A stretch of DNA of 62,399 bases, filler included, from Collodictyon triciliatum (taxonomy: Eukaryota), in the NCBI GenBank assembly GCA_043381765.1. It is 6 parts of 6 records of this genome, joined end to end, with 100 filler letters (N's around TTAATTAATTAA, not from the genome) between each part and the next. Parts side by side here need not be neighbours in the genome. Positions count along the whole stretch, not along the records: positions 29,210 to 43,707 come from JBHJMP010001809.1; 5 more parts are not named here. The stretch is one strand, 5' to 3'. The notes beneath the pieces are model-generated. The model was not told the DNA's origin, searched no databases, and was given only the letters and a program-made list of their open reading frames with translations. The translations under genes were made by a program, and so were the position numbers. This document shows, in pieces, positions 29,110 through 50,462 of this stretch (position 1 is the stretch's first letter; each line of letters opens with the position of its first letter).

Positions 29110-29306
29110 NNNNNNNNNNNNNNNNNNNNNNNNNNNNNNNNNNNNNNNNNNNNTTAATTAATTAANNNNNNNNNNNNNNNNNNNNNNNNNNNNNNNNNNN
29201 NNNNNNNNNATGAACCAGAACTTGGTACAAGTTACAGACAATCAACAAATCCATACTTGAATCAACTTGTAAGATTTAAATAATTATTTTTTTATAAAAC
29301 AATTAT

Positions 29307-31074
29307 TTAATAAAGAACTTGGGCGTTGTCTTTTCCGACGTCAAGAATACGTGTGTGCTCAATGATGACCCAGCAGGTATAGTCATCTACAGGGGTCAAT
29401 GACGCAAGATTTGCGGGAACTGGTGCCTCCCCAGCAGCGGTGACAACTGAAGCGTGTTTGCAAGACCCGGCAAACTGAAGTCCGACTTGTACAATTCCAG
29501 AATTTGAAGATGCGTTGTAGCCAGATAATTCAAATTCGTCAGAATAATCTGATCGAGTCATCGACCACCCTAATGCGAACAGAGTCGGAGTTTTCCAAAA
29601 GAATTCTTCACACTCAAGTGGATTTGTGTTTTTATCAGCTGTTGTATTTGCCGTGACAACCATTGCATTCTGAACGGCTTTATTGCTGGCATAATTGACG
29701 CCTGCGCCTGACCGTGGTGTAGTCAATTGAATAATTCCACTATTTGATGCGGCACCAGCATTAATTTGAAGTGGTTGAATTGCTTGTTGTGAGAAGTTGA
29801 CCTGTCCAAGCATCTCAGCACTTGTGTTATATCCCAATGCTTTCATTAAATAATTAAGAGCTTCAGGTTGCTGACACAAAGCTTGACCAACTACTGCACT
29901 TGATAAAAATCCAGACGCCGCAGCTGCCGTGCCAGTAGTATTTTGGCCAGCGGCCGGTACATTGGCATAAGCAGGATTTGCTAGCTGAATAGGAACTGAT
30001 GGTAGCACTTTACCGTTGACTGTTAGTCTTGCTTGAGAAAGTCCCTCAATTGCATGGAGTCGGTCAGTACCTAGATATCCAAGATTACCCTGTTCACAAG
30101 CTCGAGTAAAGATAAGATATATAGCATTGATATTTGAGTATTGAACACTGATGTTTTGTGTGACCCATCCTGAAGTTCTTTTTGGAATATTAAACTGAGT
30201 CATAAAATATGTTTCAATTGGAATCTGTAAATTATTATTTATTAAATATTGTGAAAGGGCATTATTATATGATGGCTCCGTTTGAATATAATTAATATTC
30301 ATTTTTAAATTACTTAAAGTATAACTAAGAGTTGTGTTAGTGCTGGCAGTAAAGTCCAAAAAGTCGAATCCGGTATTTGCTCCATAAGCTAATTGACCTT
30401 GACTAAAGCACTCTGATGCGGGCGCCATCCAAATACGAACTTCGAGACTGTTGGGACCTAGTAAATAAGCAGGCAATAAAGTTTTTATATTCATCAAACC
30501 AAGATATCTAAGCGGAAATCCAATTTGAATAGTGTTACTTTCAGTCCCTGCTGCTCCAACTAAAAACAATCTGGACCTATCAAGAACAGACTGACCTATT
30601 CCCATTCCTCCACTCATAAGATTCACCCAATTCTGGTTATTACACCAATTGTGCTTAAACGACTCAAGGTATGAATAGTTGTCGATTCTTTCCAATTCTG
30701 AGCCATTTAAGTATACTGCAATTCTATAAATAAATGATTCATAACTTTCACACGGGCACAGTATTGGCAATACTCTATTCCCTGCTGTAGCTGTGGATGC
30801 ATCGAACAGACCTCTTTTTAGATTTACGGCATTTGTAACCGTTGCGGCATCTAGTCCTTTTACAGTCAGATCCGCTATGATATGAGCAGAGTCCATTTGG
30901 ATAGACCACTCGTTGTCTATAGGCACCCGAAACACAATTTGCGGGCCTGATGAAAAATTTGCTGTTTGCTCTGTTCCGTTGCTTGGCAAAACCTGGCGTT
31001 GTTGTTTTTCAAGAATAGTTTTTTTTTTTTGACGATACATTTCTAAATTGTAGCTCCTCCGGTAGTGAATCCAT
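29307..31074 (-). CDS. Major capsid protein (double jelly-roll, PLV type); probable start at 31074 with a 1-nt shift in an A12 run
   Basis: Beta-rich 577-aa ORF next to the packaging ATPase, with QIVFRVP, SFIYRIAVYLNGSELERIDNY, LLPAYLL..LEVRI and YTLSNLKMN patterns typical of PLV MCPs. An upstream MDSLPEELQF lies in another frame. Confidence 0.78.
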
Positions 31075-31100
31075 ATTTTTAATAAGAAAATAATTTTTGT

Positions 31101-31511
31101 TTAGTAACCTATTTTATTTCGGATATTGTCTCCATGCGTATTAATGACTTTTCCCAGAGATTCATTTTGTTGACCAATTTTTCGAATTACTGGATCATAT
31201 TTTCGTAGTTGTTCGGCTCCTTTTTCAAATGGCTTTTGGAATTTACTGCCTTCGACAAGTCCTGCCACAGTTGCGCCTTTTTTTCCTTCTGCTAAATCTA
31301 AGCCTTTTTTCACGTATCCTTTATTTGCATTGTACACCTTTAATGCCTGCTCCGACAATCCACCCGTGGCTGTACGAGCCAAGTCACGCAGACCGCCACC
31401 TGTAGCCTTGTCCACTGCATTGACCACCTTTTCACCGACATTCATTCCCTTCCTTACAACTTTGACTGCTCCTTTGAAAAATTTCTTTAAACTTCTGCGT
31501 GTGAATACCAT
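31101..31511 (-). CDS. Small basic virion-associated protein with N-terminal amphipathic helix
   Basis: 136-aa ORF between ATPase and MCP; begins MVFTRRSLKKFFKGAVKVVRKG. Confidence 0.6.
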   Translation of the reverse strand: MVFTRRSLKKFFKGAVKVVRKGMNVGEKVVNAVDKATGGGLRDLARTATGGLSEQALKVYNANKGYVKKGLDLAEGKKGATVAGLVEGSKFQKPFEKGAEQLRKYDPVIRKIGQQNESLGKVINTHGDNIRNKIGY

Positions 31512-31534
31512 ATAATTATATATAAAAAAATCTA

Positions 31535-32257
31535 TTATGTAAGTTCCTCTTCAAAATTTTTAAAATAAAGTTGGGGGTTTGCATTACATACAACATACAG
31601 AAAATTATATTTTTCCGCTGTGGCATATGTATAGAACTCTTGAAATTTTTCTTCAGACAAATCTATAATATCCTCATAAATAGATTTTATCTCGTTTTTT
31701 GATTTTGACCTATACATTATAAAATGCGTAAAATTCGTTCTGTGTATTCTTTGAAAGTATGTAAACTTATGTGAAATCATAATTATACTTAGATGCAAGT
31801 GTCGAGACTTTAAAATTAATTTAGTCAGCTGGGTATGCCGGATGCTTTTCAGCTCATTGGCCAAGTCATCGATTATCAGCAGCGCTCTGAAATCCTCCTT
31901 CTCGAAATCTTCGTCACCTTCTACATCCTCCTTTATATATTCTGCTACTTCATTATTTATTGTCTGAAAAACACGCTCCTCTGAAAATTCAATTGAGTCC
32001 AGGGACTTGTCGTAGACCTTACCTTCATCAGTGACATTTGGACTACAAAAATAAATTTTATTAAATACCTCAAAATAGTGCTTTCTAATTAAATTTGCGT
32101 ATAGTGTGGTTTTACTTGAGCCTGTAGGGCCAAGGACACCCATTATAAAATTTCGAGTGGAAATATCCGGCAATGGAAACGGAATTCCAAAATCCCGAGT
32201 TTTTTTAGATTTTGTCAGTGGTGCTATCTTTATATTTGATACGCGTTTCGTATTCAT
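31535..32257 (-). CDS. A32-like (FtsK/HerA) genome packaging ATPase
   Basis: Walker A GPTGSSKT, Walker B LLIIDD, arginine-finger KSRH, IIMISH, RTN and C-terminal YNFLYV..YFKNF. Confidence 0.9.
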   Translation of the reverse strand: MNTKRVSNIKIAPLTKSKKTRDFGIPFPLPDISTRNFIMGVLGPTGSSKTTLYANLIRKHYFEVFNKIYFCSPNVTDEGKVYDKSLDSIEFSEERVFQTINNEVAEYIKEDVEGDEDFEKEDFRALLIIDDLANELKSIRHTQLTKLILKSRHLHLSIIMISHKFTYFQRIHRTNFTHFIMYRSKSKNEIKSIYEDIIDLSEEKFQEFYTYATAEKYNFLYVVCNANPQLYFKNFEEELT

Positions 32258-32278
32258 TATTATTATCTATAAAAAAGT

Positions 32279-32461
32279 ATGTACGAGCTTCTAATTTATA
32301 TAAATGAAAATTTAGTTCATCAGGGTGTATATGATGATTTGGACGATTTACAAAACTATATATATTATCTAGAAAAGTTTCATAGAAAAGAAAAAAATAA
32401 TAGAATTTATAAAATCAAGTCAAAAATGCTTGACGAAAAAATAATTGTTTCATTTAATTAG
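32279..32461 (+). CDS. Small hypothetical viral protein
   Basis: 60-aa ATG ORF that exactly fills the space between the ATPase and the left inverted repeat. Confidence 0.45.
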   Translation: MYELLIYINENLVHQGVYDDLDDLQNYIYYLEKFHRKEKNNRIYKIKSKMLDEKIIVSFN

Positions 32462-32463
32462 AA

Positions 32464-32673
32464 TTTATTCAACAACCCAAAAACCCAAAATGTCCCAAAA
32501 TGTCCCAAAATCCCAAAATTCCCCAAAAAATTTTCCAAATAGAAACCCCCTCAAGATTTTTTTTTACACAATGAAAAAAAAAATACAATGCGCGATTTTG
32601 TATTTCCCATTTTTTTTGGGATTTTTTGGGACATTATAATAAAATCTGGGACCCTCTCCCCATCCTTTTTTTT
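32464..32673 (+). repeat. Left copy of ~200-bp internal inverted repeat
   Basis: Reverse complement of 37354-37553 apart from a few substitutions and one extra TGTCCCAAAA unit. Confidence 0.95.
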
Positions 32674-32739
32674 TAATTGAGAAAACGCATAAAAGTAATT
32701 TAAAAGTAATTTAAAAAGATTTTACTAAGGTTATTTAAG

Positions 32740-35232
32740 ATGTCTTTAGCAATTGAAATACAAGTTTGCCAAGACGATATAATCGAACTCTGCAAAACAG
32801 AGCGATTTATAAGTCAACCAACAAATGTAAAAAATGCTCTGATTTTTTTTAAAAAGTCAGTTGTCGATGGTGTGGTAAAAGTTGAGTACAGTCAAAAAAA
32901 CGAGGGCCGATTTTGGGGCAAACCAGATATCAATGCGCTACCGAGATGGATTAAGCAGACACTCTTACATCAAAAATATAGTGATATTGATATATCGAAT
33001 TGTCATCCAAATATTCTTTTAAAGTTGTGTAACAAACATAACGTAAGATGTGAAGCGTTAAAATACTATTGTGAAAATCGAGACCTATGTTTGACTGAGA
33101 TAATGGATTTATACAAAATCTCTAAAGCAGATGCCAAAGACCTATTCAATATTATGAATTTTGGCGGCGGATTCAATACTTGGACTGAAGACAAAAAAAT
33201 TGTAAATGCAGTTGAATCTGAATTTATAAAGACATATTATGAAGAAGCCAAGAGAATCAAAGAACAATTTGTAATTATCCCAGATTACAAAAGATTTTTT
33301 GATATGGCCAAAAAAGAAAAAGACAACCCCTATGAAATTTTTAATAGTGGTATGGCTTTTATAATGCAACACTACGAGTCTGTTTATCTTGTCAAAGCAC
33401 TGGAACTTGTAAAAAATACAAATATGTATATCCCAGCTCACGATGGTTTTTATTTACATAAAGACCGATACAAAGCTATGGGTCTTGAAAAATTTATAAA
33501 AATGATAAATGAATATGTAGATGAGCCAGGTATTACTTTTATTCACAAAGAAATGAACGAGGCAATTGACCTCAAGACAGCGGATAAAGTAAATATTAAT
33601 TTCTGGGACTCATTTGATTTATATAATATCGCAACCGAAATTATAAAGAAAAAAACATTGACTGCTTCTAATGGTGTTTTATACATGTATAATGGTGTTT
33701 TTTGGGAAGCTGACACACCTGAAAAAAACTATTCACTATTTTCAAAATTTTGGAGTGAAAACTATTATTATGTCATTTACGATTTAATGAAACAAGCATT
33801 TGGTATAAATGAAGAGCAAAGTCAATCCAATAAAAAAATAAATAAAAAAAAAAAGGGTAAAGACTCGGCGCCAACTGAATCTGAAAAGGCTGAAAATGAA
33901 AATACAAAATCAATTGGACTACATCAAAAATCGTGGGAAAGACAATTAGCTAATTCACGTGTGTTTCATTTTAGACCTCTTGTAACGCTAGTTTTACAAA
34001 GACTCGAAAACTCGTCATTAAGGTTTAATGAAATACCTTATTTATTTGCCTTCAACAATAGAATATTTGATTTAAGAATTAATAATTTTATTGAACCAAA
34101 ACCAGAACAATATATATCCGAGACCTGTGGATATAATTATGAAAATGATGAAAATTTAGAAAATAAAAAAACTTATCTGATGTCAATATTCAAAACAATT
34201 CTACCGGAAGAATATGATCTCGAACTTTTTTTAAAATATTGCTCGACAGGTCTAAGTATGACACTCATAGAAAAAATATGTTTGGCACACGGGTCTGGAC
34301 GAAATGGCAAAGGACTATTTCAAGAATTCAACAAAATAACACTGGGAAATTATTTTTATGCATTAACTCCAACTAGTATACAGTCAAAATTAAAAGATGG
34401 TTCGAATCAAGCTTTAGCAAATATTCAGGGCAAAAGACTCATTGTAACCTCGGAGCCAGACCAAGACCAAAAAATAAATACTAGTATCCTAAAGCTACTC
34501 ACAGGCTGCTCTGTTATTAATGCCAGAGCTCTTTATTCAAAGCAAACAGACACTCAAAATTTTGGAACTTATATTTTAGAGTGTAATAGCAAACCTAAAT
34601 TAGATGTTGTCGAACAGGCTATTACACAGAGACTATTTGTAATTCATTTTCCAATAAAATTTATTGAAAAAGAAGTTTATGAAAATTTAGAAGAAAAACA
34701 AGGGTATGGAATAGTTAATCCTAAATATAAAGACTTTGATTTTTTGAAATCATATAAAATCGCATATTTTCATATTTTAGCTGATGCATATCAAAATTAT
34801 ATTAAAAATTCATCATTTTTATTACAACAAGGAAGTCGGTCACATTTAATTACAGAAACCTATTTTCAAGACTCTGATGATTTTACCAGTTGGTTTTACA
34901 CAAATTATAAAAAAGTTGAAACTGATGATGAAATATTAATTTCTTTATCTGATTTAAGAAAAGAATATATAGATTATAAAAGACAATTTGAATTTAAATT
35001 TGAAATAAAAATTGGAACATTTTACGAAAAAATGGCATCGTGTCCTATGCTTTGTAGATTCATAAAACATAGAGATACATATTATAAAGGGCAAAAATTA
35101 AAAAAGCCTACGATTATTGGACACATAAAATTGAATTCGCAAGAAAAAGAAGATGTTGAAATGGAAAATGAAATAGGACAAGAACCTCTTAAATGTGAAG
35201 AATCAAAACCACATTTTGATTTCAAAAAATAA
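32740..35232 (+). CDS. PolA-like polymerase/primase (TVpol) fused to D5-like SF3 helicase
   Basis: PolA-like motifs DIDISNCHPNIL (A), AKDLFNIMNFGG (B) and PAHDG (C). D5 N-terminal FAFNNRIFDL, Walker A GSGRNGKG, Walker B IVTSE, motif C LECN, RLFVIHF. Confidence 0.87.
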   Translation: MSLAIEIQVCQDDIIELCKTERFISQPTNVKNALIFFKKSVVDGVVKVEYSQKNEGRFWGKPDINALPRWIKQTLLHQKYSDIDISNCHPNILLKLCNKHNVRCEALKYYCENRDLCLTEIMDLYKISKADAKDLFNIMNFGGGFNTWTEDKKIVNAVESEFIKTYYEEAKRIKEQFVIIPDYKRFFDMAKKEKDNPYEIFNSGMAFIMQHYESVYLVKALELVKNTNMYIPAHDGFYLHKDRYKAMGLEKFIKMINEYVDEPGITFIHKEMNEAIDLKTADKVNINFWDSFDLYNIATEIIKKKTLTASNGVLYMYNGVFWEADTPEKNYSLFSKFWSENYYYVIYDLMKQAFGINEEQSQSNKKINKKKKGKDSAPTESEKAENENTKSIGLHQKSWERQLANSRVFHFRPLVTLVLQRLENSSLRFNEIPYLFAFNNRIFDLRINNFIEPKPEQYISETCGYNYENDENLENKKTYLMSIFKTILPEEYDLELFLKYCSTGLSMTLIEKICLAHGSGRNGKGLFQEFNKITLGNYFYALTPTSIQSKLKDGSNQALANIQGKRLIVTSEPDQDQKINTSILKLLTGCSVINARALYSKQTDTQNFGTYILECNSKPKLDVVEQAITQRLFVIHFPIKFIEKEVYENLEEKQGYGIVNPKYKDFDFLKSYKIAYFHILADAYQNYIKNSSFLLQQGSRSHLITETYFQDSDDFTSWFYTNYKKVETDDEILISLSDLRKEYIDYKRQFEFKFEIKIGTFYEKMASCPMLCRFIKHRDTYYKGQKLKKPTIIGHIKLNSQEKEDVEMENEIGQEPLKCEESKPHFDFKK

Positions 35233-35499
35233 AAAAAATAAATTGATTTTTATCAAAACAATTTATTTATCTTTAACCAGTTCTCGTTCTCGTTTTATTT
35301 TCCTCCGTTCTGCATATTTTGGGTTGTAAGCGTCTGCATATTGTTTTTTCTTTTTCCATACTTCGACAATGTGTTTAATTTTATCTGATTGAAATCCAAA
35401 TTCTGTCAGGCATCGAAGCTCAAATTGAGGGTCCATTATTATATTCTCTTATAAAAATCTTTTTAAGCCCTATTTAAAAACAATTTGCTGTAGATAATT

Positions 35500-35982
35500 A
35501 TGGCTCCAAAAATCACGCAAGAAATCAAAGACAAACTACCTGAGGACTATAGTTCAGCTGATTGGGAACCTATCGATCCAGAAGATATTCAAGTAGGTGA
35601 TTACATTGCATATGTTGCTAAGGCCCGAAAATATATGTCTGGAAAAGAGGATGCTGGTGGATGGAAGAAAGGAGGATTGATAAATGCTATTCCAAATATG
35701 GACGAACAAATGCGACGCAAGGCAAACAATGATAAGGTGTTTTTCTTCAGGGCTTACGCTGTTCAATGGTCTGTTAACCAAGACAATGTATTGATGTTTT
35801 TCAAGTCAAAGAAAGACGTCGATGAGGTTTTAGCCAAGGGAAGGAAACGAGCCAGGGATACCAAAGAAGAAGGACGAATTAACAAACTGAAATTTGACAC
35901 TGAAAAACTGGAGGAGCAACTCGAGCAAGTCAGCAAGGAAGAAAAGAAGCCTGCACGCCGCGGCCGACCACCCAAAAAATAA
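35500..35982 (+). CDS. Hypothetical protein with C-terminal AT-hook (RRGRPPKK)
   Basis: 160-aa ORF with a core GDYIAY...KKGG...WSV and an RGRP motif at the extreme C-terminus. Confidence 0.65.
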   Translation: MAPKITQEIKDKLPEDYSSADWEPIDPEDIQVGDYIAYVAKARKYMSGKEDAGGWKKGGLINAIPNMDEQMRRKANNDKVFFFRAYAVQWSVNQDNVLMFFKSKKDVDEVLAKGRKRARDTKEEGRINKLKFDTEKLEEQLEQVSKEEKKPARRGRPPKK

Positions 35983-35990
35983 AATTACCT

Positions 35991-37196
35991 CTACAACTTA
36001 TTTCTTCGAGCAGCCCGTTCAGCCCGACTATTTTTTTGATTTTCTGATGTCTCTTTATTAAATCTAAATAAATCTGATTCTAGTAGACCACTAGCGCCTT
36101 TCATCTGTCTACCTTTATTATTTTTTAAAAATTCATCCAAGTCGTCCTGTTCAGCAAATTCACTTAGTAATTGCGATTTTGGTTTAAATTTTTCAACTTT
36201 GGTATCTTCTGAAAGAAGCAGCAAGTCCGCACGACCAAACTTTTTATTTTCTAAATTATCTGTTGTTTCGAGGGTATAATATGGAAGTTGCCATTGTGAG
36301 CTTGGTGTACTTTTTTTTTTAATTTTATAAACTTCGAAAGACCACTTGGGTAGATATCCCTTCTGTTTTTTAATTTTATTTTTCATACTTGCCGGAATAT
36401 CAGTTTTTTCTAAAAGCACTCTGACTTTGTTACCAGGCTCTAGGTCTTTTAATGAGCCCTGTTCTCTTTTTTTGGAGTTGTAATTTTCCATATTTTTAAT
36501 TATTTGTTCCTTGTATTCGGGAAGTAATGCAACAGCAGGGGCTACTTTTGTGTTTTTGTTGGGCTGTAGATTCAGACTGTCCAGAAAACTCTGTAGGTCT
36601 GGAATGGGGTCGTTTCCAGTTTTTTGTTTATATCCGTAAAGCGCTCGTTTCAGGGTGCCATTTTTGCGTTCTATTTGACTTTGACTCGTGGGTGTTGCCG
36701 ACTTGCTTTTAACGTGAGTTATATTTTGTTTTTCTAGTAGTGAGGCCACTTGGTCTTTAAATTCATTACCGTTGTCTGACTGTATTGTTTTAACCAATTT
36801 ATAAGAATTAATAAATTTTCGAAGTTGCTCAGCGACATCACTGGCTTTTAATGATTCGAGTGGATACGCCCATAATTTGCGTGTGTATATATCTGTACAA
36901 GTTAAAAGATAATTTGCATCTTCACTGTCTAGATTTTTTATATCGATAGTGTCAATTTGGACATATCCAGGCTCGAACCGCATAATTGTATTTGTGTTTT
37001 TAGATTTTACCGGTCTTTGTAAAATTTGCCAGTCTGGTTGAGACCTAATAAACTTATCAACATACGAACGAGTAATACCAAATTCACGCACTGCTCTAAA
37101 CAGACCGTCTCGAGAATTAGTATGTTTTGGTGATTTATAAAATACCTCGTTAATCTTGGCTTGCCATTCGTTTCTTGGGAGGATTTTCGTTTCCAT
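35991..37196 (-). CDS. Retroviral-type (rve, DDE) integrase, Polinton-like
   Basis: Catalytic triad in QIDTID, SDNGNEF and QIERKNGTLK. Also DIYTRKLWAYPL, a Polinton-like N-terminus (FY..P...LF......ITRSYVDKFIRSQ..WQ) and C-terminal KWSFEVYKI. Confidence 0.92.
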   Translation of the reverse strand: METKILPRNEWQAKINEVFYKSPKHTNSRDGLFRAVREFGITRSYVDKFIRSQPDWQILQRPVKSKNTNTIMRFEPGYVQIDTIDIKNLDSEDANYLLTCTDIYTRKLWAYPLESLKASDVAEQLRKFINSYKLVKTIQSDNGNEFKDQVASLLEKQNITHVKSKSATPTSQSQIERKNGTLKRALYGYKQKTGNDPIPDLQSFLDSLNLQPNKNTKVAPAVALLPEYKEQIIKNMENYNSKKREQGSLKDLEPGNKVRVLLEKTDIPASMKNKIKKQKGYLPKWSFEVYKIKKKSTPSSQWQLPYYTLETTDNLENKKFGRADLLLLSEDTKVEKFKPKSQLLSEFAEQDDLDEFLKNNKGRQMKGASGLLESDLFRFNKETSENQKNSRAERAARRNKL

Positions 37197-37341
37197 TTCT
37201 TAATTTTTCTTTAGATAATAATCTACGTTCGATAAAGTGGTGGACAGTGCTGGCAAATGGCTCAACTTCCTTTGAGTAATCGAGTTTTTTCACTTTTTTT
37301 TTCTTTTCAACTTTTGATTTTTTATATTGTTTTTGTTTCAT
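37150..37341 (-). CDS. Small lysine-rich protein upstream of and overlapping the integrase
   Basis: MKQKQYKKSKVEKKKK...; the ATG lies immediately inside the right inverted repeat. Confidence 0.4.
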   Translation of the reverse strand: MKQKQYKKSKVEKKKKVKKLDYSKEVEPFASTVHHFIERRLLSKEKLRNGNENPPKKRMASQD

Positions 37342-37353
37342 AATTGTATATAG

Positions 37354-37553
37354 AAAAAAAAGGATGGGGTGAGGGTCCCAGATTTTATTATAATGTCCCA
37401 AAAAATCCCAAAAAAAATGGGAAATACAAAATCGCGCATTGTATTTTTTTTTTCACTGTGTAAAAAAAAATCTTGAGGGGGTTTCTATTTGGAAAAATTT
37501 TTGGGGAATTTTGGGATTTTGGGACATTTTGGGATTTTGGGTTGTTGGATAAA
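37354..37553 (-). repeat. Right copy of ~200-bp internal inverted repeat
   Basis: Reverse complement of 32464-32673. Confidence 0.95.
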
Positions 37554-37569
37554 ATTTCTTGGTGACATT

Positions 37570-40500
37570 ATGGGTAAAAAAGATATCAAAACTCCTATCA
37601 AAACTCCTAGTAAAACAACACCAGGTAAAGTATATACTGGAAGTGCTGTAAGAACACGAATGGCAGAAGAAAAACAACAAGAAGAATATGCAAAATTAAG
37701 AGAATCTCAAAGGCAAGAAAGAGAAGCTGAAGAACGATTAAAAAAGTCTATAAGTGAACAAGACTATCGACAACAGTATTTCGAAGATTATTTTGAAAGA
37801 TCATTGAAAGGTAATATATACGATGCCAAGGGGGGGCAAATTAGTAATTTTGGGGATTTTTTTGTTGCTTTGGCAACAATGAAAACTTCAACAAAACGTC
37901 TTAATTTTCAACCAAAAACAAATGAATTTTTAAAGAGTGGAATAATAAAAGATATGTTGGTTAATTTGGTACCTGAAGAATCCAAGAGTGCGTTTGATAA
38001 GGTACCTTGGACAATAAACACAATATGGCACGTTTTTAATGCAACTCCAATAAAAAAACTAGGTAATGAAATAACATTTACTACAGACCAAGAAACGAAT
38101 GACGTTTGGTTTAATGAAATGAAAGAGTTAGCAAAACAACAAAGTAGAGGGGCTACACCGACTTTATCACGCAGACCATCTGCTGTAGCTGAATCTGCTA
38201 ATGTAAAAATGGAAATTCCGTCAGCAGACCAAATGAGTCGAATGCTTGCTGGCACAAAAAGTAGGCCAGGCAAAGCACCAGTCGAAGCTCCTTCGGCTTC
38301 GCAACCAACTAAATCACCTCGAAAATCACCAGTTAAACCCGCTTTCCCCCCAACTCTTGACCCAAATACTGGGATAGATACTAGAAATCCAACACCTACA
38401 AAATCACCTCGAAAATCACCTGTGAAACCCGCTTTTCCTCCAACTCTTGATCCAAATACTGGGATAGATACTAGAAATCCAACACCTAAAAAGTCACCAG
38501 CTCCACCAGCCAAATCACCCGCAAAATCAACTCCAAAAACGCCAGTTAAACCTGCTTTCCCTCCAACCCTCGATCCAAATACTGGTATAGATACCAGACT
38601 TGCTACACCCGGAAAATCACCTGTTGAATTATTAAAAGCCAAACTAGATCAAATAACAAAAGAAAAAGTTAAGGAATTTAAGGATGAAATATCAAAAATA
38701 AGCCCACAAGTCAAAGTAGATAGTCCAACTCAACAAACAGAAATTCCACTTAGTAGAAGAATACTAGAATCAGAAACACCTGCAGGTAAAGCAAGGCAAA
38801 AAAAAGTTGAAGAAGCGAAAAAAAAAATGGCAGAGGGCTCACCACCTCAAACAAATATATGGTCACCACCTAAATCTGATTCTCCAATTAAAGTTGACAC
38901 AAGTCCACCAAAGAGCGCAAGCCCAAAACCTATAACATTACCAAAACCCAAATCACCAGTCAAAGATGTTATTGAGCCATTTAAACATTTTACTCCCACC
39001 AAAGAACAAGAAAAAAGTCCAGTTGTTGAAAAAGTTATTGCTGAATTGCCTGTAGATGAATTGCCAAAAAGATACACTCCATCAGTATATAAATCCAAAT
39101 TATATAATGATTACAGACAGCATTTAATGGATTTATGGATAAAAGATGCAACTCGTTATTATTCAACAACACCAAGACCAAGTATTGTTAGTTTTCTAGA
39201 ATTTTTAAATTCATTTTTAGCATTAAAAACTGATGTTGATGACAGAGTAGCTACTCAAAAATTTAATATAAAAAAATCGAGATTTTTATTAAACGATTTT
39301 TCACAATTATTTTTTCACAAGGCTTTTGGGATAAGAATGCCTGATATTGATAATGAAGAAGATATTGTTGACGATGATTTGGTTATGGATCTTAATCCAC
39401 TTGTATTAAATAAAGAATCATTAAAGCCTCTTGTAATTGAACGATTTATAAATTATTTAACTGAAATTACCCCGATGCAAAAAGTGCGAAATAGAAATAT
39501 AGCTGCAGAAAGAGAAGCAGCCATTGAAAAACCACCAGAGGTTCAACCAAAAAAAAAACCAATATTAACAGATCTTGAATTAGAAATTGCACAAAAAACA
39601 GGAGAAAAAATTAAAAAGGCTCGAGAGCTTGCAGAAAAAAAAGCTGAAGAAGAAAGATTAGAACAACAGGCTAAAGAAGAAAGAATTAGAAGAATGGCAG
39701 AACAACAAAGAGAAGCTGAACGAGAAGCCGTGAGAGCAAGAGACCAAGCAGAGCGCGATGAAAGAGAAGCATTTTTAAAAATACCAATTTTTAGTAGATA
39801 TTTATATAATGAAGATGAGGATTTATATACTTTTATTAGTGAATTTGACATAAAAAAAGATATAGAAAGATTAAGCGCTCGTAATAGAATAAAATTTTTG
39901 ACAATATGGTATGATGAATTTGCAAAGGTATTGTATCACTTAAAATATGATGTTACTCGAGATAATTTAGGTTGGAATTATTCAACTTTAGATATTATAA
40001 ATAATGAAGAAGACTATAATAAATTTAAAAATATTTATCAAAGAGTATTTCAAGAAATTAATGAAAAATATGATGTTTCACCTATAGGAAAAGTATTTAA
40101 TATATCCAAACTTGAATTAGATATTATAAAAGAAATTAATCAAGATATGTTAAATCAAAGTCAAGAAAGATTTAACACTCAAGATGATACTAGTGATGTA
40201 TCAATGAAAGATAAAACTATTCAAGGAGAATCATATGATGAAGAATTAAATATTACCAGTAATATTACATTTGATTTAAAATATGATATAAACACATATT
40301 TTGATGATGATGAACAAAAAATAATAAATATGATTCATAATCCAAATACCTCATACCTTGATGTTTTTGTAAATGATGAAAATAATCAAAGAGCAATGAA
40401 AAAAATGTCTTATGATTTAATCATACGGGTTAAAAGACTAATAGAAAGTTATACAGATAAATTATATAAAAAAATTAATCCAAATAATTATAAGATTGGA

Positions 40501-40860
40501 AAGTCTATAACATTTAATTTAGATAAAAAAAATACAATTATATTTTTGAGCGCATATGCAATTTTATGTTCTCAATTATCTAGTAATTACGATGATTTAA
40601 ATCAATCGATTAAATTATGGCTTTTGGCAATTAAAAATTATAATCAAAAAATAAATCAAATATATGATAGTGTTCAACCAAGTGAATTTGATTTGAAACA
40701 AACAGCAGTTAATGAGTCTATAAATGAATTAACTCCAATTCAAAAACGACAATTTAATCAGGTGATTAGGCAAACGGCAGCCCCAATAAATCAAAATAAA
40801 TATTTATATATTATTTGGTTGGATAATCAAAAAACGCGGTATATTGGAATAACAAAATAA
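37570..40860 (+). CDS. Large S/T-P-x-K-rich, coiled-coil hypothetical viral protein (~1096 aa)
   Basis: First ATG at 37570 (the TTG start at 37489 lies inside the IR). Internal 30-aa repeats KSPRKSPVKPAFPPTLDPNTGIDTR. Confidence 0.8.
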   Translation: MGKKDIKTPIKTPSKTTPGKVYTGSAVRTRMAEEKQQEEYAKLRESQRQEREAEERLKKSISEQDYRQQYFEDYFERSLKGNIYDAKGGQISNFGDFFVALATMKTSTKRLNFQPKTNEFLKSGIIKDMLVNLVPEESKSAFDKVPWTINTIWHVFNATPIKKLGNEITFTTDQETNDVWFNEMKELAKQQSRGATPTLSRRPSAVAESANVKMEIPSADQMSRMLAGTKSRPGKAPVEAPSASQPTKSPRKSPVKPAFPPTLDPNTGIDTRNPTPTKSPRKSPVKPAFPPTLDPNTGIDTRNPTPKKSPAPPAKSPAKSTPKTPVKPAFPPTLDPNTGIDTRLATPGKSPVELLKAKLDQITKEKVKEFKDEISKISPQVKVDSPTQQTEIPLSRRILESETPAGKARQKKVEEAKKKMAEGSPPQTNIWSPPKSDSPIKVDTSPPKSASPKPITLPKPKSPVKDVIEPFKHFTPTKEQEKSPVVEKVIAELPVDELPKRYTPSVYKSKLYNDYRQHLMDLWIKDATRYYSTTPRPSIVSFLEFLNSFLALKTDVDDRVATQKFNIKKSRFLLNDFSQLFFHKAFGIRMPDIDNEEDIVDDDLVMDLNPLVLNKESLKPLVIERFINYLTEITPMQKVRNRNIAAEREAAIEKPPEVQPKKKPILTDLELEIAQKTGEKIKKARELAEKKAEEERLEQQAKEERIRRMAEQQREAEREAVRARDQAERDEREAFLKIPIFSRYLYNEDEDLYTFISEFDIKKDIERLSARNRIKFLTIWYDEFAKVLYHLKYDVTRDNLGWNYSTLDIINNEEDYNKFKNIYQRVFQEINEKYDVSPIGKVFNISKLELDIIKEINQDMLNQSQERFNTQDDTSDVSMKDKTIQGESYDEELNITSNITFDLKYDINTYFDDDEQKIINMIHNPNTSYLDVFVNDENNQRAMKKMSYDLIIRVKRLIESYTDKLYKKINPNNYKIGKSITFNLDKKNTIIFLSAYAILCSQLSSNYDDLNQSIKLWLLAIKNYNQKINQIYDSVQPSEFDLKQTAVNESINELTPIQKRQFNQVIRQTAAPINQNKYLYIIWLDNQKTRYIGITK
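38308..38598 (+). repeat. Coding 90-bp tandem repeat (2 full copies plus 1 partial)
   Basis: Visible at DNA and protein level; differences between the full copies are mostly synonymous. Confidence 0.9.
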
Positions 40861-40876
40861 TTTTATTTACATTTAT

Positions 40877-42322
40877 ATGGCACCAAAACAAAGACAAAAA
40901 AATCCTGATGCATTCAAAGAAAGGCAAGCAAGAAATAGAGCTCAGGGTACTACACCAGCTAGGACTGTTGCAGAAGTGGCTCAACAACAGAGTCCATTCG
41001 TAGGATTTGCTCAATTACAACCGGCTCCAGTTAGTTCAAATTCAACTTCACCGCAAGTAGTACCTACACCCGCTAGAAAACCAATGTCAAGAGTAGGTTC
41101 TCCAATGGATCTAATGGGTACATTTTTTGTTAGTGACGATGATATCTTTGCTTCTTCTTCATTGCCTCGACCCCCAGGGCCTCCACCTACGAGTCCTCCA
41201 TTCCAGAGTCCTTTACCCGGTCAGCAAATATTTGGACCCGCATCAGCTGTTCCAATGGCTACAATTCTAAACACTGCTCAAAATCCAGACACAAATCAAA
41301 ATTTATTTACATTTGGGTCACCTGCAAGACAACCTGGAATAAATGACCCATTAAGAATAAGTCCAGCTAGACCTAGTTCAGTTAAAAGTCCAGGTGTAGC
41401 AGGTGCTGTTCCTCCTTTTGCTAGATATCAACCGACAATAGCAGAGGTAAATTCTCCATCGGTAAGAAAAGCTAGAGAACTTGGAGCTACAGAAAAATCA
41501 CCAGCCTCGGCCGCAGATTCACCATCTACTCCAGTAGAAGCACCAAAACTAAACAGAGCGGAAAGAAGAGCCAAAGCAAGAGCAGAAAGAGAAGAAGCAG
41601 ACCGTATATTGGCAGAATCATTGGAAAGAGATTTAAACACAGCACAAACTATTAATGTAGGTAGTATATATGAATCTGCCCGAGAGCCACCAGGTGGAGA
41701 CCCTGATGACCCAGAAGTGGGTGTTGGACAAGGTGGGCCTGCTATTGAGTTAAATCTAAATGAATTTACAAAAGCAATAGCAAACGGTTTTAGATTGGCC
41801 CAGGGTGACTTATATTCTATGGCATCAACCGAGCCAGGTGATTATACATCAAATACAAAAAGCGCAGCTGTTACAGATTTTTATGCCAAAATAGATCCAG
41901 GTATGCCAACTGAACAACGTAGGAGTATAATATTAGAAGAATTTAATAATATTGGAGCTGTTTATGCTGCTTCTCCAAATGAAACTAATATGGATTTACT
42001 TAGGCGCCTAGATTTTGTTAGAAAAATGCAAATTCAAAATCAAGCATTTGCCGATTATCGAAATGGTATTAGTCGTATAGAACCAGGATTTACACCAACA
42101 TCAATGTTTACAAATGAAAAAATACTGGGTACAGCTTTTAATGGAAGTCCCACATCAAAAGTTGTTAGATTTACAAATGGTATTTCGGAAATAAAAATAA
42201 TAGGGGACGGCAATGGTCGATATTATGGAGTACAATCTGGAAAAAGATTTGGCCCTAGAAAATTTGATGAGATAGAACGCTGGGCATCATTAGGTGGATT
42301 TGAAGCAGATGAATTGAAATAA
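40877..42322 (+). CDS. Pro/Ser-rich hypothetical viral protein (481 aa)
   Basis: Long intact ORF 16 nt after the previous stop. Confidence 0.75.
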   Translation: MAPKQRQKNPDAFKERQARNRAQGTTPARTVAEVAQQQSPFVGFAQLQPAPVSSNSTSPQVVPTPARKPMSRVGSPMDLMGTFFVSDDDIFASSSLPRPPGPPPTSPPFQSPLPGQQIFGPASAVPMATILNTAQNPDTNQNLFTFGSPARQPGINDPLRISPARPSSVKSPGVAGAVPPFARYQPTIAEVNSPSVRKARELGATEKSPASAADSPSTPVEAPKLNRAERRAKARAEREEADRILAESLERDLNTAQTINVGSIYESAREPPGGDPDDPEVGVGQGGPAIELNLNEFTKAIANGFRLAQGDLYSMASTEPGDYTSNTKSAAVTDFYAKIDPGMPTEQRRSIILEEFNNIGAVYAASPNETNMDLLRRLDFVRKMQIQNQAFADYRNGISRIEPGFTPTSMFTNEKILGTAFNGSPTSKVVRFTNGISEIKIIGDGNGRYYGVQSGKRFGPRKFDEIERWASLGGFEADELK

Positions 42323-42377
42323 TTAAAAAATTATATGAAAGTGCTAGTCAATCCTCATTTATTGAAAACTGTTGTAT

Positions 42378-42869
42378 TCAAGGCACGGAAATTGTAACAT
42401 TATAAAAATTATCAACCATTTGTTTCCTAAATGCCACAGCGTCTTCAATATTTTGAAAATATTTTTTATGATATGTATATTTAGCAGTACAATAACTAAC
42501 TTGAAATTTTCCATTTTTTTTAATTTTTGAAATACCTCCATAGTTTGTATTTGAATTAAATTTTATACGATTACGTGCATTCATTGATTGATTAACCCAT
42601 CGCAAATTAGTAGAATTATTATTTAATTTATTACCGTCAATGTGATCAATTATATTGTATAATTCAGGACAAGGGTTCGAGACGTGTACAATGGCTACAA
42701 GTCTATGTATCAAATAATATTTTTTACATAATTGAATTTGTTTATAACCCTTGTTGTGTTTTTGAGTTTTTAAAATTGAAAGTTTGTTATTTCTTACATT
42801 TCCAAAAGTACTTATCTCATATTGAGCACAAAAGGGAATAGGTTTATATAATTCTTCATTTAAAGACAT
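42378..42869 (-). CDS. NUMOD4 - HNH endonuclease with AP2-like C-terminus
   Basis: YEISTFGNVRN (NUMOD4), IHRLVA, IDHIDGNKLNNNSTNLRWV (HNH), GISKIKKNGKFQVS...YFQNIEDAVAFR (AP2-like). Confidence 0.88.
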   Translation of the reverse strand: MSLNEELYKPIPFCAQYEISTFGNVRNNKLSILKTQKHNKGYKQIQLCKKYYLIHRLVAIVHVSNPCPELYNIIDHIDGNKLNNNSTNLRWVNQSMNARNRIKFNSNTNYGGISKIKKNGKFQVSYCTAKYTYHKKYFQNIEDAVAFRKQMVDNFYNVTISVP

Positions 42870-42909
42870 TATACTAACTTATATAAATACCTTTAAGTAT
42901 CTTTGCAAG

Positions 42910-43320
42910 ATGACTACACAAACATTTCAAATTACTACCAATGATTACAGCGTCAAAATTCAATATGATGGTCAATTAATTGGTCCATTTACCAAACTTG
43001 AAATTCGCTTCATAAAAGAAGATGTGAAAAACATTAAAGTTGAATGGGATGGCCTGAATCTCAAGATGATAGTTGGGAGGAAAACTGAAACATTTACAAC
43101 TGATGCGTTTAGCTGTTTTTCTGCACATCTAAGATATGATGTCGAGGATAATTACCAAGGCCACCTGGATGCTACTCTTAGCTGTCTTTTTTTGGTTATG
43201 AGGCCTGAGGACTCTCCTAATAGAAGAGCGTGGCTTTTCGCGAGAGAAGAGCTAAAACCATTACTGGTTAGTCTGCTCTGCTATATTCTCAAGCGTCACC
43301 AAGATGATATACAACAATAA
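42910..43320 (+). CDS. Hypothetical viral protein (136 aa)
   Basis: Intact ATG ORF divergent from the HNH gene. Confidence 0.6.
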   Translation: MTTQTFQITTNDYSVKIQYDGQLIGPFTKLEIRFIKEDVKNIKVEWDGLNLKMIVGRKTETFTTDAFSCFSAHLRYDVEDNYQGHLDATLSCLFLVMRPEDSPNRRAWLFAREELKPLLVSLLCYILKRHQDDIQQ

Positions 43321-43560: not shown

Positions 43561-43608
43561 AAGTGACATAATTATATTATTAATATTAATAATATAATTA
43601 TGTCACTT
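43561..43608. repeat. Perfect 48-bp palindrome
   Basis: AAGTGACATAATTATATTATTAAT|ATTAATAATATAATTATGTCACTT; the two 24-nt halves are exact reverse complements. Confidence 0.97.
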
Positions 43609-44682
43609 GCCACCTGTGCCCAGTAGGAACACACAACCCATCAGCCGGTCAAACATCTTGCCTTATTTGCGAAGCAGGAACATATAGTCCATCCGTTGGC
43701 TTAAGCANNNNNNNNNNNNNNNNNNNNNNNNNNNNNNNNNNNNNNNNNNNNTTAATTAATTAANNNNNNNNNNNNNNNNNNNNNNNNNNNNNNNNNNNNN
43801 NNNNNNNTGTTTTATTTTATTGTTTTATTTTATTGTTTTATTTTATTGTTTTATTTTATTGTTTTATTTTATTGTTTTATTTTTCCCTGCACTTTTCATG
43901 TTCTACGAAACGAAATATCCGCGTACCCATTCGTTCATTTTTAAAATGTTATTACATGATATATTCATATCTAATTTACCTCCAATCCCACACCCCAGGG
44001 CCCCAGAAACAGAATGGTTATCTGCCAGTCGCGACAACTGCCATTGAGGGCGGCCATGAAGAGTACGGCCAGGGTGCTTCTTCACCAGAACATGTGCTTT
44101 CAGCCGACTCCGCCCAATCTCGCCTTGCATAGTGATGTAAGCCTACGAATCCCTCTCTTCTACTACCAGGATTCTTTCGCTTCTGTTCGGCATCGTGGTT
44201 GCATTCCGACGGTTGAGACATGCTCATATTCGAAAAAGACAACCCTATCTCGAGTCCTGACCTGCTTGTGGGGCCCAAGCAAATTAATAAACCCATACAT
44301 CTGCATATGACCCGGTTGTGCGGTATCATTATCAAGGGTCAGGCAAGGAAGAGGAAGAGAGAATGGGACAATAAATCACCACAGCGCGACTTGGAATGCT
44401 ATTATAAATCTACTAACAGTATGGGGAATGTAAGATCAAGTGCCGTTTTTTCATGCTTCGCTTTGGCTTTTTCACATTACCTTGCTGTCCACACGCTTAC
44501 AAGGCTGCTTTCCGGGTCACCTCAAAAATTGTGATCCTCATAGGTGTATTTTCCTTTCAGTCGCTCACAACCAAACACGATGATAATAATTATAATAAAA
44601 ATAAATAAAAAAAGCACCTCAAGCTCAAGCTTAAACACCGGACAGGAAAGGGAGGAAAAAACCGGAGAAAAGAAACAGAGTC

Positions 44683-45982
44683 ATGTTCCAGCCGCCGGAA
44701 GATCAGCGCACCGACCTGCAAGCACACATCGCTCAAGTCCGCCCATGGTCGGTTTTTTTCGATCGGTCGCACTTGAGTCTTCCAAAGAGCGCCACGTGGA
44801 AACCCCGCGTCCAACGCAATCTTACCTACTTTCGTATGAACTACATCGCAACGTCGGCAGCGGTCTTTTGTATTAACGTGTGAGTCTCAAGCCTTTTCTT
44901 CAGCNNNNNNNNNNNNNNNNNNNNNNNNNNNNNNNNNNNNNNNNNNNNNNNNNNNNNNNNNNNNNNNNNNNNNNNNNNNNNNNNNNNNNNNNNNNNNNNN
45001 NNNNNNNNNNNNNNNNNNNNNNNNNNNNNNNNNNNNNNNNNNNNNNNNNNNNNNNNNNNNNNNNNNNNNNNNNNNNNNNNNNNNNNNNNNNNNNNNNNNN
45101 NNNNNNNNNNNNNNNNNNNNNNNNNNNNNNNNNNNNNNNNNNNNNNNNNNNNNNNNNNNNNNNNNNNNNNNNNNNNNNNNNNNNNNNNNNNNNNNNNNNN
45201 NNNNNNNNNNNNNNNNNNNNNNNNNNNNNNNNNNNNNNNNNNNNNNNNNNNNNNNNNNNNNNNNNNNNNNNNNNNNNNNNNNNNNNNNNNNNNNNNNNNN
45301 NNNNNNNNNNNNNNNNNNNNNNNNNNNNNNNNNNNNNNNNNNNNNNNNNNNNNNNNNNNNNNNNNNNNNNNNNNNNNNNNNNNNNNNNNNNNNNNNNNNN
45401 NNNNNNNNNNNNNNNNNNNNNNNNNNNNNNNNNNNNNNNNNNNNNNNNNNNNNNNNNNNNNNNNNNNNNNNNNNNNNNNNNNNNNNNNNNNNNNNNNNNN
45501 NNNNNNNNNNNNNNNNNNNNNNNNNNNNNNNNNNNNNNNNNNNNNNNNNNNNNNNNNNNNNNNNNNNNNNNNNNNNNNNNNNNNNNNNNNNNNNNNNNNN
45601 NNNNNNNNNNNNNNNNNNNNNNNNNNNNNNNNNNNNNNNNNNNNNNNNNNNNNNNNNNNNNNNNNNNNNNNNNNNNNNNNNNNNNNNNNNNNNNNNNNNN
45701 NNNNNNNNNNNNNNNNNNNNNNNNGCATCGCTCTGTTCTGGATACTGGGAATCAGCTCGTGCCGTAAGAGATACAACATCACCACCACGATTAACCTCGT
45801 TCTGTCCATCCTGATTCAGTGCTAGATAAATGAGTGCTCGACTCTCATGCGCATATCAATTATTAGGCTTGTTTAAAAAATTTTTCATTTATTTAGTTGT
45901 GCTTGGACACAGCGCCTTTTACGAGCCTGTCAGCGAATCCGGCGGCTTTGAGCGCGTCTTTGGTGACATCCTCGACAGCTGA
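44683..45982 (+). CDS. PRA1 family protein (prenylated Rab acceptor), middle lost in N gap
   Basis: VRPWSVFFD...LSLP...RVQRNLTYFRMNY and C-terminal LGHSAFY. Confidence 0.82.
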
Positions 45983-49200: not shown

Positions 49201-50462
49201 NNNNNNNNNNNNNNNNNNNNNNNNNNNNNNNNNNNNNNNNNNNNNNNNNNNNNNNNNNNNNNNNNNNNNNNNNNNNNNNNNNNNNNNNNNNNNNNNNNNN
49301 NNNNNNNNNNNNNNNNNNNNNNNNNNNNNNNNNNNNNNNNNNNNNNNNNNNNNNNNNNNNNNNNNNNNNNNNNNNNNNNNNNNNNNNNNNNNNNNNNNNN
49401 NNNNNNNNNGTATTTTGTATTTTGTATTTTGTATTTTGTATTTTGTATTTTGTATTTTGTATTTTGTATTTTGTATTTTGTATTTTGTATTTTGTATTTT
49501 GTATTTTGTATGTGCCTTGTAGATTGGCTACAATATCTTGCGCCTCTGTATGAAAGAGCTATTCGAATTCAACCTGATGCAGACAGACCCAAACTGGTCA
49601 AATTTCCTATACCGACCGGACTTGAAGAAGGTATTTGAATAAACTATATAATACAATAGAAATCATCACAGAGGTTTTTGTGTAATGCATACCAAAAGAC
49701 TGTATCATAATATATCGTTTTTTCCTTTGTTTTCTCATCTGGAAATGGCTAGTATTGGTTGTGCAAAGATTCTCGCCACAATAATCACCCAATTTATTTC
49801 ACCTGGCAGATTGTCCTTCTAGACTTTGGAGCAAGTCGGAGCTACCAGCGCTCCTTCATCCAAGAATACCTCCGAATCGTTCATGCTGCAGCCCATCAGG
49901 ACAGAGACACGATTATTGACGGCTCCATCAAGCTAGGCTTCCTTACTGGCGACGAGACGAAGGTTTACAAACTCTTTCCTATTTTATTATTTCAGCCACA
50001 GCCACCAACATAACAAAACCACATCACACCTTCACGCCCCATCAAAAATATTTATAGTAATCATAATCATAAATCCCGGATTAAATAAGCTCTGAAAGAA
50101 AAATTATCTGGAAATATTATTCTTTTTTTTAAAAAAAACGCAGCGAAACTTCTGCTTCTGTTTTTCATGACAACCACAATCACTCGCAGACCATGATTGA
50201 CGCACACTACCAAGCCGTACTTGCCTTGGGCGAGCCGTTCGTCAATGACCGGCCCTTTGATTGGGGGCGCCAGAAAATATCGGAGAAGGTCAACAGCCTC
50301 ATGCCCAAGATGCTTGGCGACCGCCTCACACCCCCGCCGCAGGAAGCAAACTCCATCCACCGCAAACTCGCCGGTGCGTATCTGCTCTGTGCAAAGCTGC
50401 GCTCCGTCTTCCCTTGCCGCAGGCTGCTTCTTGATGCCTATAATGGATTCCAGCGCATGTAA
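46261..50462 (+). CDS. COQ8: COQ8/ADCK3 (ABC1 family atypical kinase), multi-exon; start approximate
   Basis: [18 protein letters not shown] (KxGQ), [72 protein letters not shown]. Confidence 0.92.

Follow-up and report, generated by a model that had tools for sequence, protein, structure and literature searches.

Introduction

In the short segment of herpes simplex virus (HSV), where oriS lies in inverted repeats, as in the baculovirus hr elements and in SV40-type origins, non-coding repeats unite divergent promoters or enhancers with an origin that consists of inverted binding sites plus an A/T tract. When inverted copies recombine, the segment between them is turned around, as in the herpesvirus short segment, the 2-micron plasmid and plastid genomes. 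For polinton-like viruses (PLVs), the available part of PMC11296320 proposes that inverted repeats act as origin and as integration substrate, clustered with replicase and recombinase genes, and reports one PLV repeat with 72% nucleotide identity to an entomopoxvirus terminal repeat. The accessible text of PMC7805220 treats terminal repeats as a marker of completeness and gives target-site duplications (TSDs) of 5-7 bp. According to preprint 10.64898/2026.10.13.758929, some related genomes that have several replicases carry non-terminal repeats around their replication genes, and mobility of these modules is proposed there as speculation. Here, we analyse a pair of inverted repeats of about 200 bp in the genome assembly of Collodictyon triciliatum (GCA_043381765.1), which enclose the replicase, AT-hook-like and integrase genes of a polinton-like element. 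The two arms can tentatively be read as copies of one promoter/origin unit whose likeness is maintained by recombination, inversion of the enclosed block being a possible by-product; we prefer this reading, with confidence that stays somewhat below even.

The locus resembles the Polisuviricotina modules of the preprint, as far as its available part describes them, in that non-terminal repeats surround replication genes apart from a capsid module. It differs in that those genomes have several replicases, whereas the open reading frames (ORFs) of ≥ 100 amino acids (aa) scanned on the present contig, which is cut at one end, include no second replicase outside the pair. It also differs in that the arms form the upstream regions of outward-reading genes, one arm has a flanking direct repeat and no convincing TSD surrounds the pair. 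With the end-module hypothesis in the available part of PMC11296320 it shares inverted repeats beside replicase and integrase genes, as well as a likeness of the repeat to DNA of large viruses, there of the large virus that is parasitised. There, however, the repeats are termini and the enzyme is a tyrosine recombinase, whereas here they stand 4.7 kb apart around a module with an rve integrase, and only a 10-bp repeat array resembles giant-virus DNA. Polintons/Mavericks and transpovirons likewise combine, in one element, capsid genes with a replicase and an rve integrase placed between inverted repeats. In contrast to Polintons/Mavericks, the repeats here exclude the capsid genes, there is no 6-bp TSD, no adenoviral protease was found on the contig, and no protein-primed family B polymerase was found either: none of the 10 ORFs of ≥ 100 aa scanned on this incomplete contig matched DNA_pol_B. 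The rve integrase is present. To HSV oriS, baculovirus hr and SV40 origins, the arms may be compared in the design of a repeated non-coding unit, with no homology of sequence or protein.

Replication modules are swapped between PLV capsid backbones, and the element may bear on how this happens. Three ideas meet in one sequence, namely that origin and promoter are one repeated unit, that repeats let a module flip and that repeats let a module move. On the plain reading, the pair would simply be a regulatory region that has been duplicated, useful for annotation and unsurprising. The description of repeat-bracketed replication modules in the literature has only just begun, and the present pair is a variant of them. 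We found no paper on virophage genome isomers or on internal inverted repeats of polintons; an equivalent may be present in figure 6 of the preprint.

An inverted repeat pair around the replicase and integrase genes

The window, i.e. the whole stretch of 62,399 nucleotides (nt) that was analysed, is not one molecule but a chain of separate contigs joined by five linkers of the form N44-TTAATTAATTAA-N44 (14501-14600, 29110-29209, 43708-43807, 58486-58585 and 60410-60509). Features were not to be read across linkers. The element is confined to the contig at 29210-43707 (14,498 nt; JBHJMP010001809.1), which is bounded by the linkers 29110-29209 on the left and 43708-43807 on the right.

The near-identical inverted repeats that a preliminary description had placed at 32464-32673 and 37354-37553 were recovered with blastn as an inverted match of 197 nt at 96.95% identity (E 1.4e-91). 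A repeat finder delimited 181 nt at 98% (32493-32673 and 37354-37534), and the outer, more gapped part covers 55 nt at 84% (32464-32518 and 37499-37553). The left arm (32464-32673, + strand, 210 nt) has its outer end, with a repeat array, toward the ATPase gene and its inner end, GGGACCCTCTCCCCATCC-T9, toward the replicase gene. The right arm (37354-37553, - strand, 200 nt) has the opposite orientation, and its outer end lies 16 nt from the ATG of a gene for a 1096-aa protein. The difference in length between the arms corresponds to one additional 10-nt repeat unit in the left arm. They are separated by a 4.7-kb block, which gives an arm-to-arm segment of 5.1 kb. A third copy is absent from the window (blastn), hence two copies in all; a 28-nt piece of the core had no match in IMG/VR and a 22-nt piece none in the JGI metagenome contigs. 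Inverted repeats of this length and likeness are what the ends of a DDE transposon bounded by terminal inverted repeats (TIRs) look like, and they are also long and similar enough for the recombination that an invertible segment needs.

The replicase, the AT-hook-like ORF and the integrase lie inside the pair, and the capsid, ATPase and S/T/P-rich genes outside it, a division that had been described correctly. The statement that the repeats lie in the middle of the element finds no such support: the contig is cut by the linker 97 nt beyond the capsid gene and has neither terminal repeats nor a circular end overlap, so that the true ends of the element, and with them a middle position, cannot be asserted.

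The arms as upstream regions of outward-reading genes

Four gene blocks begin 12-206 nt from the arm ends and all read away from the arms, in line with the earlier remark that the major genes point away from each repeat on both sides. At the left arm, the replicase gene starts at 66 nt from the inner end and the ATPase gene at 206 nt from the outer end, with a possible 60-aa ORF between this arm and the ATPase gene. At the right arm, a 63-aa ORF (orf63) starts at 12 nt and the integrase ATG lies at 157 nt from the inner end, and the 1096-aa gene starts at 16 nt from the outer end. Because only these 16 nt separate arm and ATG, the promoter of the 1096-aa gene must lie in the arm. The two other divergent gene pairs of the element manage with intergenic regions of 40 and 63 nt, so the 200-nt unit probably does more than promote transcription. 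The obvious guess, by analogy and given its inverted clusters of putative binding sites and its place beside a replicase with a superfamily 3 (SF3) helicase, is that the arm may also be an origin or an enhancer.

The internal structure of the arms agrees with such a role. From the outer to the inner end, the unit consists of an array of CCCAAAATGT, A/T-tracts with a hairpin, TTTTTTGGGA and TTTTTTGGGACAT, TATAATAAAA, GGGACCCTC(T/A)CCCCATCC and a T-run, and the inner end is C-rich. In the left arm, the 10-nt unit CCCAAAATGT is repeated 4.7 times (32484-32528, + strand), and the right arm has the mirror image of this array (37499-37541). The central hairpin, as read from the sequence, is AAATACAA-N9-TTGTATTT between A- and T-tracts (32581-32605, no strand assigned). 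Two inverted copies of the repeat unit, TTTTTTGGGA and TTTTTTGGGACAT (32612-32634, + strand), are located 85-130 nt from the CCCAAAATGT array and form a dyad with it. Folded as single-stranded DNA, the entire arm reaches -27.6 kcal/mol (z -2.9), and it matches no tRNA and no Rfam family. As in hr-like dispersed origins or enhancers, the units are intergenic and have internal repeats and dyad symmetry, here in two copies on the contig.

Concerted change of the arms between metagenomic strains

At least 20 of the 24 public runs listed, from 13 studies, contain part of 31500-38500, and two, X1 and X2, contain at least half of the sampled words (81% and 61%). Four runs from four studies, all as Logan contigs, were aligned to the element contig, with 32 of the 341 pieces listed. 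Among these pieces, contigs end within the arms in all four runs. In run X1, a 4813-nt contig corresponds exactly to 32607-37420; the contig of the left flank stops at 32499, and that of the right flank begins at 37518. In X2, one contig starts at 32607 and another spans 37391-38319 (917 nt), and the right-flank contigs of X3 and X7 start at 37544 and 37543, respectively. Two flanks and both ends of the 4.7-kb block thus meet one core in four runs, which argues against a local misassembly. Contigs that break in the arms are the graph that an inverted repeat gives, so the orientation of the block is not readable from them.

The window arms differ at 32530 (A/T) and 32571 (A/G). One record each in X1 and X3 fits both arms; at both positions, the single core contig of X1 agrees with the right arm (T and G), and at 32571 the core of X3 agrees with the left arm (A). 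The arms are therefore homogeneous within a sample and different between samples, a hallmark of gene conversion or recombination between the two. Of the models put forward in the preliminary description, duplicated bidirectional promoter/origin units kept similar by gene conversion fit best with the gene starts, the iteron-like arrays with their dyad and the collapsed arms of X1 and X3.

Relative age of the two copies

A direct repeat flanks the left arm only, with the upstream copy TTTAATT-AGAA at 32453-32463 (+ strand) and the downstream copy TTTAATTGAGAA at 32672-32683. The copies match at 11 of 12 positions, a value reached by 0.84% of 5000 random AT-rich site pairs (P 0.0084), and the right arm has no comparable flanking direct repeat. 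The sole database relative of the 1096-aa protein (85% identity) is encoded on a 14,737-bp contig, and its gene call starts without Met, 51 codons upstream of the Met. These 51 codons are unit-like sequence in frame, with 13 of the last 17 residues identical, so the unit has been kept before the 1096-aa gene in this more distant strain; the start of the contig itself lies within the unit, some 150 nt ahead of its first gene. The flanking repeat and the conserved unit together suggest, as far as sequence can tell, that the right arm is the older copy and the left arm a later duplicative insertion.

A distant relative, L089 (12,855 nt, capsid protein 33% identical), which also has genes for ThyX and a GIY-YIG protein, lacks a long inverted pair. 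Its direct repeat of 58 nt at 88% identity (10372-10429 and 12735-12792) flanks a D5-like replicase gene, and the copies are located directly upstream of two consecutive genes, one of which is this replicase. Duplicated upstream regions therefore occur in L089, and with it in the element group.

Proposed model and the points against it

Under the preferred reading, the non-coding arm of about 200 bp, one copy of which lies at each border of the replicase/AT-hook/integrase block, is a control unit. The unit would act as a divergent promoter, and the D5-type replicase or some other DNA-binding factor would probably recognise it as an origin or enhancer. Of the two copies, the one beside the 1096-aa gene would be older, and the left copy would stem from a duplicative insertion upstream of the replicase gene. 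Recombination or gene conversion would keep the arms alike, and recombination between them could flip the 4.7-kb block without breaking genes or parting them from their arm end. As such a flip would be harmless to the genes, inversion is expected as a by-product and not as a designed switch.

Several observations weigh against this model. The promoter/origin role of the arms is read from their sequence and position, and an inverted pair placed tightly around replication and integration genes is the single-step outcome of a TIR-bounded insertion. A 200-nt arm exceeds the need of a promoter, given the 40 and 63 nt at the other divergent pairs; no motif is common to the arms and the other upstream regions of the element, and giant-virus promoter words such as AAAATTGA were not found. 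About four configurations were compared, including the direct repeat at the left arm, whose significance after correction is about 0.03. In addition, the depth of the arm core lies above the two-copy expectation and above the sum of the flanks in X1 (34.6 versus 12.6 and 7.47) and in X3 (56 versus 18.7 and 11.3); depth is not a copy number, and the excess implies that further contexts of the core exist.

Alternative explanations

The 5.1-kb arm-to-arm segment could instead be a replicating and integrating cassette, inserted in or fused with a capsid element and perhaps able to move between backbones, which we regard as rather unlikely. Its gene set is self-sufficient for replication and integration, its genes read inward from the arms as in small linear replicons, and the available part of the preprint (10.64898/2026.10.13.758929) proposes autonomous mobility of similar modules. 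If the AGAA of the flank is counted, the ends 5'-AG...CT-3' also resemble the termini that Polintons are known to have. A candidate TSD, the 5-bp AATTT directly outside both arms (32462-66 and 37553-57), is confounded with a repeat extension AGAA(A)TTT, and an AATTT-like match has a chance of 4-18% in AT-rich DNA with 1-3 nt of slack. No convincing TSD, and none of 6 bp, surrounds the pair; the AATTT qualifies the earlier statement that no target-site duplication was found outside the repeats. The dependence of the outward 1096-aa gene on an arm only 16 nt away speaks against a cassette boundary at this position, as does a flanking direct repeat around one arm alone.

Strain divergence in the metagenomes jumps at the right arm, from 20 of 4813 nt (0.4%) inside to 34 of 787 nt (4.3%) just outside in X1 and from about 0.4% to 3.7% in X2, as a cassette boundary would predict. 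The GC content at third codon positions (GC3) differs by gene block as well (29307-43320): it is 0.30-0.33 for the capsid, 136-aa and ATPase genes, 0.22-0.39 for the enclosed genes and 0.15-0.16 for the 1096-aa, 481-aa and HNH genes, with a fall from 0.28 in the integrase gene to 0.15 in the 1096-aa gene. These differences hint at a mosaic origin. Fast evolution of a surface-type protein could be another cause of both the jump in divergence and the drop in GC3 at the right arm.

Relatives of the element bear on whether the block moves as a whole. A close strain on a 24,938-bp contig has the 136-aa gene of the capsid side (99.3%) together with the replicase (97.5%), orf57 (96.5%), the 160-aa ORF (orf160; 100%, the protein recorded there being identical) and the integrase (97%), so the block retains the same capsid partner there. 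A replicase with 78% identity and an integrase with 91% are encoded together on a 12,670-bp Logan contig, and a 10,102-bp Logan contig likewise encodes a 91%-identical integrase. Five of the 24 loose ends listed are located at 35161-35252, the end of the replicase gene; together with the unequal identities, they make the exchange unit look like single genes and not like the block. Both contigs exceed the module in length, and since an exact inverted pair would have stopped a Logan contig, the pair is probably missing from these relatives. The integrase on the 12,670-bp contig (P0023) has 223 aa, equal to residues 1-222 plus the last seven, i.e. an in-frame deletion of the C-terminal half.

No free-standing copy of the module was found and no arm-to-arm skip occurs among the joints listed; the 4813-nt contigs are the product expected when an assembly breaks at repeats. 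A 5,063-bp contig was considered as a free module and rejected, because its replicase call starts at residue 11 and the contig edge lies within the gene. The ORFs of ≥ 100 aa scanned on the cut contig also include no other replicase outside the pair. The self-integrating cassette of the preliminary description is weakened by the lack of a convincing TSD, the one-arm direct repeat and the 78% versus 91% identities, and keeps some probability through the similar modules proposed in the preprint.

As a further alternative, the arms may exist to invert the 4.7-kb block, as a flip-flop with two genome isomers that have a functional role, which is distinctly unlikely in our assessment. A match of 197 nt at 97% is more than enough for homologous recombination, the two arms change together, and every gene would stay beside an identical arm end after inversion. 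A dedicated site-specific recombinase comparable to FLP of the 2-micron plasmid is, however, lacking: neither a tyrosine nor a serine recombinase is present among the 10 ORFs scanned, and the sole recombinase is the DDE (rve) integrase, an enzyme that is no invertase. No strand-changing joint was seen among 24 of the 29 joints, although contigs cannot show these across a 170-nt repeat. Neither orientation has an evident benefit, and the relatives on the 12,670- and 10,102-bp contigs are probably without the exact pair.

The unit could also be a true terminal repeat of the virus. Its termini would then be linked through other DNA, or lie beside it, in the contig, as in a replicative form that is circular or concatemeric, in an integration that is tandem or nested, or in a genome of two segments. 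The 14,737-bp contig begins inside the unit, as a genome end would, the core depth lies above two copies, and no homologue of the 1096-aa gene was found for the strain of the 24,938-bp contig, consistent with a contig that ends at the right arm. However, both the window contig and the 917-nt contig of X2 (37391-38319) continue from the arm into the flank on both sides, and at its right end the window contig has repeats of another kind and what may be a piece of a host gene in place of the unit. Assembly breaks, too, make contigs start within repeats. On balance, terminal repeats are an improbable explanation.

Finally, a collapsed or chimeric junction that produced the pair is very improbable: the assembly is fragmented, with many N gaps and linkers, and short reads are ambiguous on the orientation of a repeat-bounded segment, but the same topology in contigs of four runs from four studies, and differences between the arms at several positions and in one repeat unit, which a collapse would not yield, largely rule out the misassembly that had been named as a refuting finding.

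A shared repeat array in giant-virus contigs

A 20-nt piece of the array matches three IMG/VR contigs, whereas a control with its letters reversed gave 0 matches. The 10-nt repeat of the arm, GTCCCAAAAT, is arrayed in 4-6 exact units at L006:1094-1156, L007:4162-4224 and L008:9792-9830. These arrays, in contigs of two lineages, are located 47-49 nt upstream of GIY-YIG/C2H2 zinc-finger genes and have the same polarity as the array before the 1096-aa gene of the PLV. All three contigs are giant-virus fragments: L006 and L007 encode a family B polymerase (PolB), and L008 encodes a capsid protein of the nucleocytoplasmic large DNA viruses and a poly(A) polymerase. The GIY-YIG proteins of L007 and L008 are only 39% identical over 87 residues, yet their array unit is identical.

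Beyond the array, the similarity of the arm to these loci is at chance level (z -0.06 to -0.38; 262-340 of 500 shuffles as high), and the PLV proteins have no homologue in the three loci. Among 80 loci of the GIY-YIG family, the array occurs in two, both from the original contigs, and five others have different tandem units. A conserved ORF of 107 or 119 aa beside the array in L006 and L007 was rejected as a gene because it is antisense to PolB.

The array may be a hint that the element and a helper giant virus have a binding site in common, by analogy with virophages, which copy helper promoters according to the available part of PMC11464507. More speculatively, the arms might be helper-responsive origin/promoter units at which a giant-virus factor switches on or cuts both borders of the block, so that inversion, excision or copying of the block in one piece would become possible; we consider this extension clearly unlikely. 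If true, such arms would be a natural vehicle for the swapping of replicase modules across polinton-like viruses. The shared 10-bp array, if it is a real link, also names candidate giant-virus partners for the element.

Gene content of the element

The replicase (32740-35232, + strand, 830 aa) has D5_N and DUF5906 (SF3 helicase) domains by Pfam-type matches, and its residues 427-744 match the helicase domains of poxvirus D5 and African swine fever virus C962R (E 1e-11 to 1e-7). Its N-terminal 310 aa have no match in Pfam or PDB, searches of the Atlas yield D5_N clusters only, and the AlphaFold2 (AF2) model of this domain is unusable (pLDDT 39). Three motifs seen by eye may tentatively be read as PolA-like, and we leave this domain unassigned. 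With the replicase, capsid protein or integrase as query, IMG/VR returned nothing useful. The replicase alignment gave 590 pattern matches in the JGI metagenome contigs, none of which was confirmed, and the integrase alignment gave five loci at 30-33% identity in genome contigs, all on contigs of bacterial metagenome-assembled genomes and uninformative.

Downstream of the replicase gene, the 160-aa ORF (35500-35982, + strand) ends in ARRGRPPKK with an RGRP motif and appears AT-hook-like by eye, whereas Pfam finds nothing. The integrase (35991-37196, - strand, 401 aa) is of the rve (DDE) type (E 3.5e-11, 43.7 bits versus a cut-off of 32.6), and its start is kept in relatives. The basic orf63 (37150-37341, - strand) overlaps this start in another frame and may be either a small gene or a leader.

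To the left of the pair, the major capsid protein (MCP; 29307-31040, - strand, 577 aa) is confirmed as a double jelly-roll by AF2 and Foldseek. The model (pLDDT 70.9, pTM 0.77, from an alignment of 20 sequences) matches the MCP of Singapore grouper iridovirus (1.7e-16), as well as Vp54 of Paramecium bursaria chlorella virus 1 and the MCPs of Sputnik and mavirus (E 1e-16 to 1e-11 for all four), and reaches 1.4e-21 in BFVD; the family profile has no sequence match in PDB. In X3, the capsid block is thinly covered at 90% likeness, a coverage that is not evidence of absence. The packaging ATPase (31535-32257, - strand) is of the A32 type (Pox_A32, E 7.5e-15, 55.5 bits versus a cut-off of 22.8) and reads away from the left arm. 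A double jelly-roll MCP, an A32/FtsK-type ATPase beside the capsid genes and a replicase other than PolB (D5_N and DUF5906) are the features of PLVs; with the rve integrase added, domain matches and the capsid model point to an integrating polinton-like virus.

To the right of the pair, the 1096-aa P/T/S-rich ORF (37570-40860, + strand) reads away from the right arm. Its 90- and 123-nt tandem repeats (38304-38621) encode the P/T/S-rich repeats of the protein, and metagenome strains differ in this gene by indels: 18 nt are left out at 38924, and X3 has a 96-nt back-step at 39014. It is followed by a 481-aa S/P-rich ORF (40877-42322, + strand) and a homing-endonuclease-like gene with HNH_3/NUMOD4 (42378-42869, - strand). 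Two joints of low depth (2-3) in two studies lead from the left-arm area into the interior of this HNH gene (32454 to 42458 in X3 and 32717 to 42507 in X1). With 17-21 unrelated letters between the joined parts, they may be deletion variants or reflect a mobile HNH gene in relatives.

Contig ends and neighbouring contigs

The right end of the element contig (43348-43608) includes a 32-nt unit in 2.9 copies, which includes TTCCACATTTGGTAT, and two repeats of about 45 nt. The number of repeats differs between metagenome strains, as seen from the joints. A perfect AT-rich palindrome of 48 nt (43561-43608) precedes the last 88 nt of the contig, whose translation is Cys-rich and resembles part of Ephrin_rec_like, with an E value of 2.7e-4 that does not reach the Pfam cut-off. 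This end may represent the terminus of the element and its junction with the host, and the stretch may be host DNA.

Adjacent contigs of the window contain eukaryotic genes of the intron type, e.g. WD40 and Roc-COR. A second fragment of an A32-type ATPase (58697-59213, - strand), 30-32% identical to the ATPase of the element, lies on a separate 1.8-kb contig, so the assembly contains at least one further polinton-like element. Further N runs (6219-6890, 24466-24487, 44905-45724 and 49091-49409) are scaffold gaps. The end of the preceding contig (28823-29119) is a tandem repeat of about 300 nt with a period of about 10 nt, directly before the linker.

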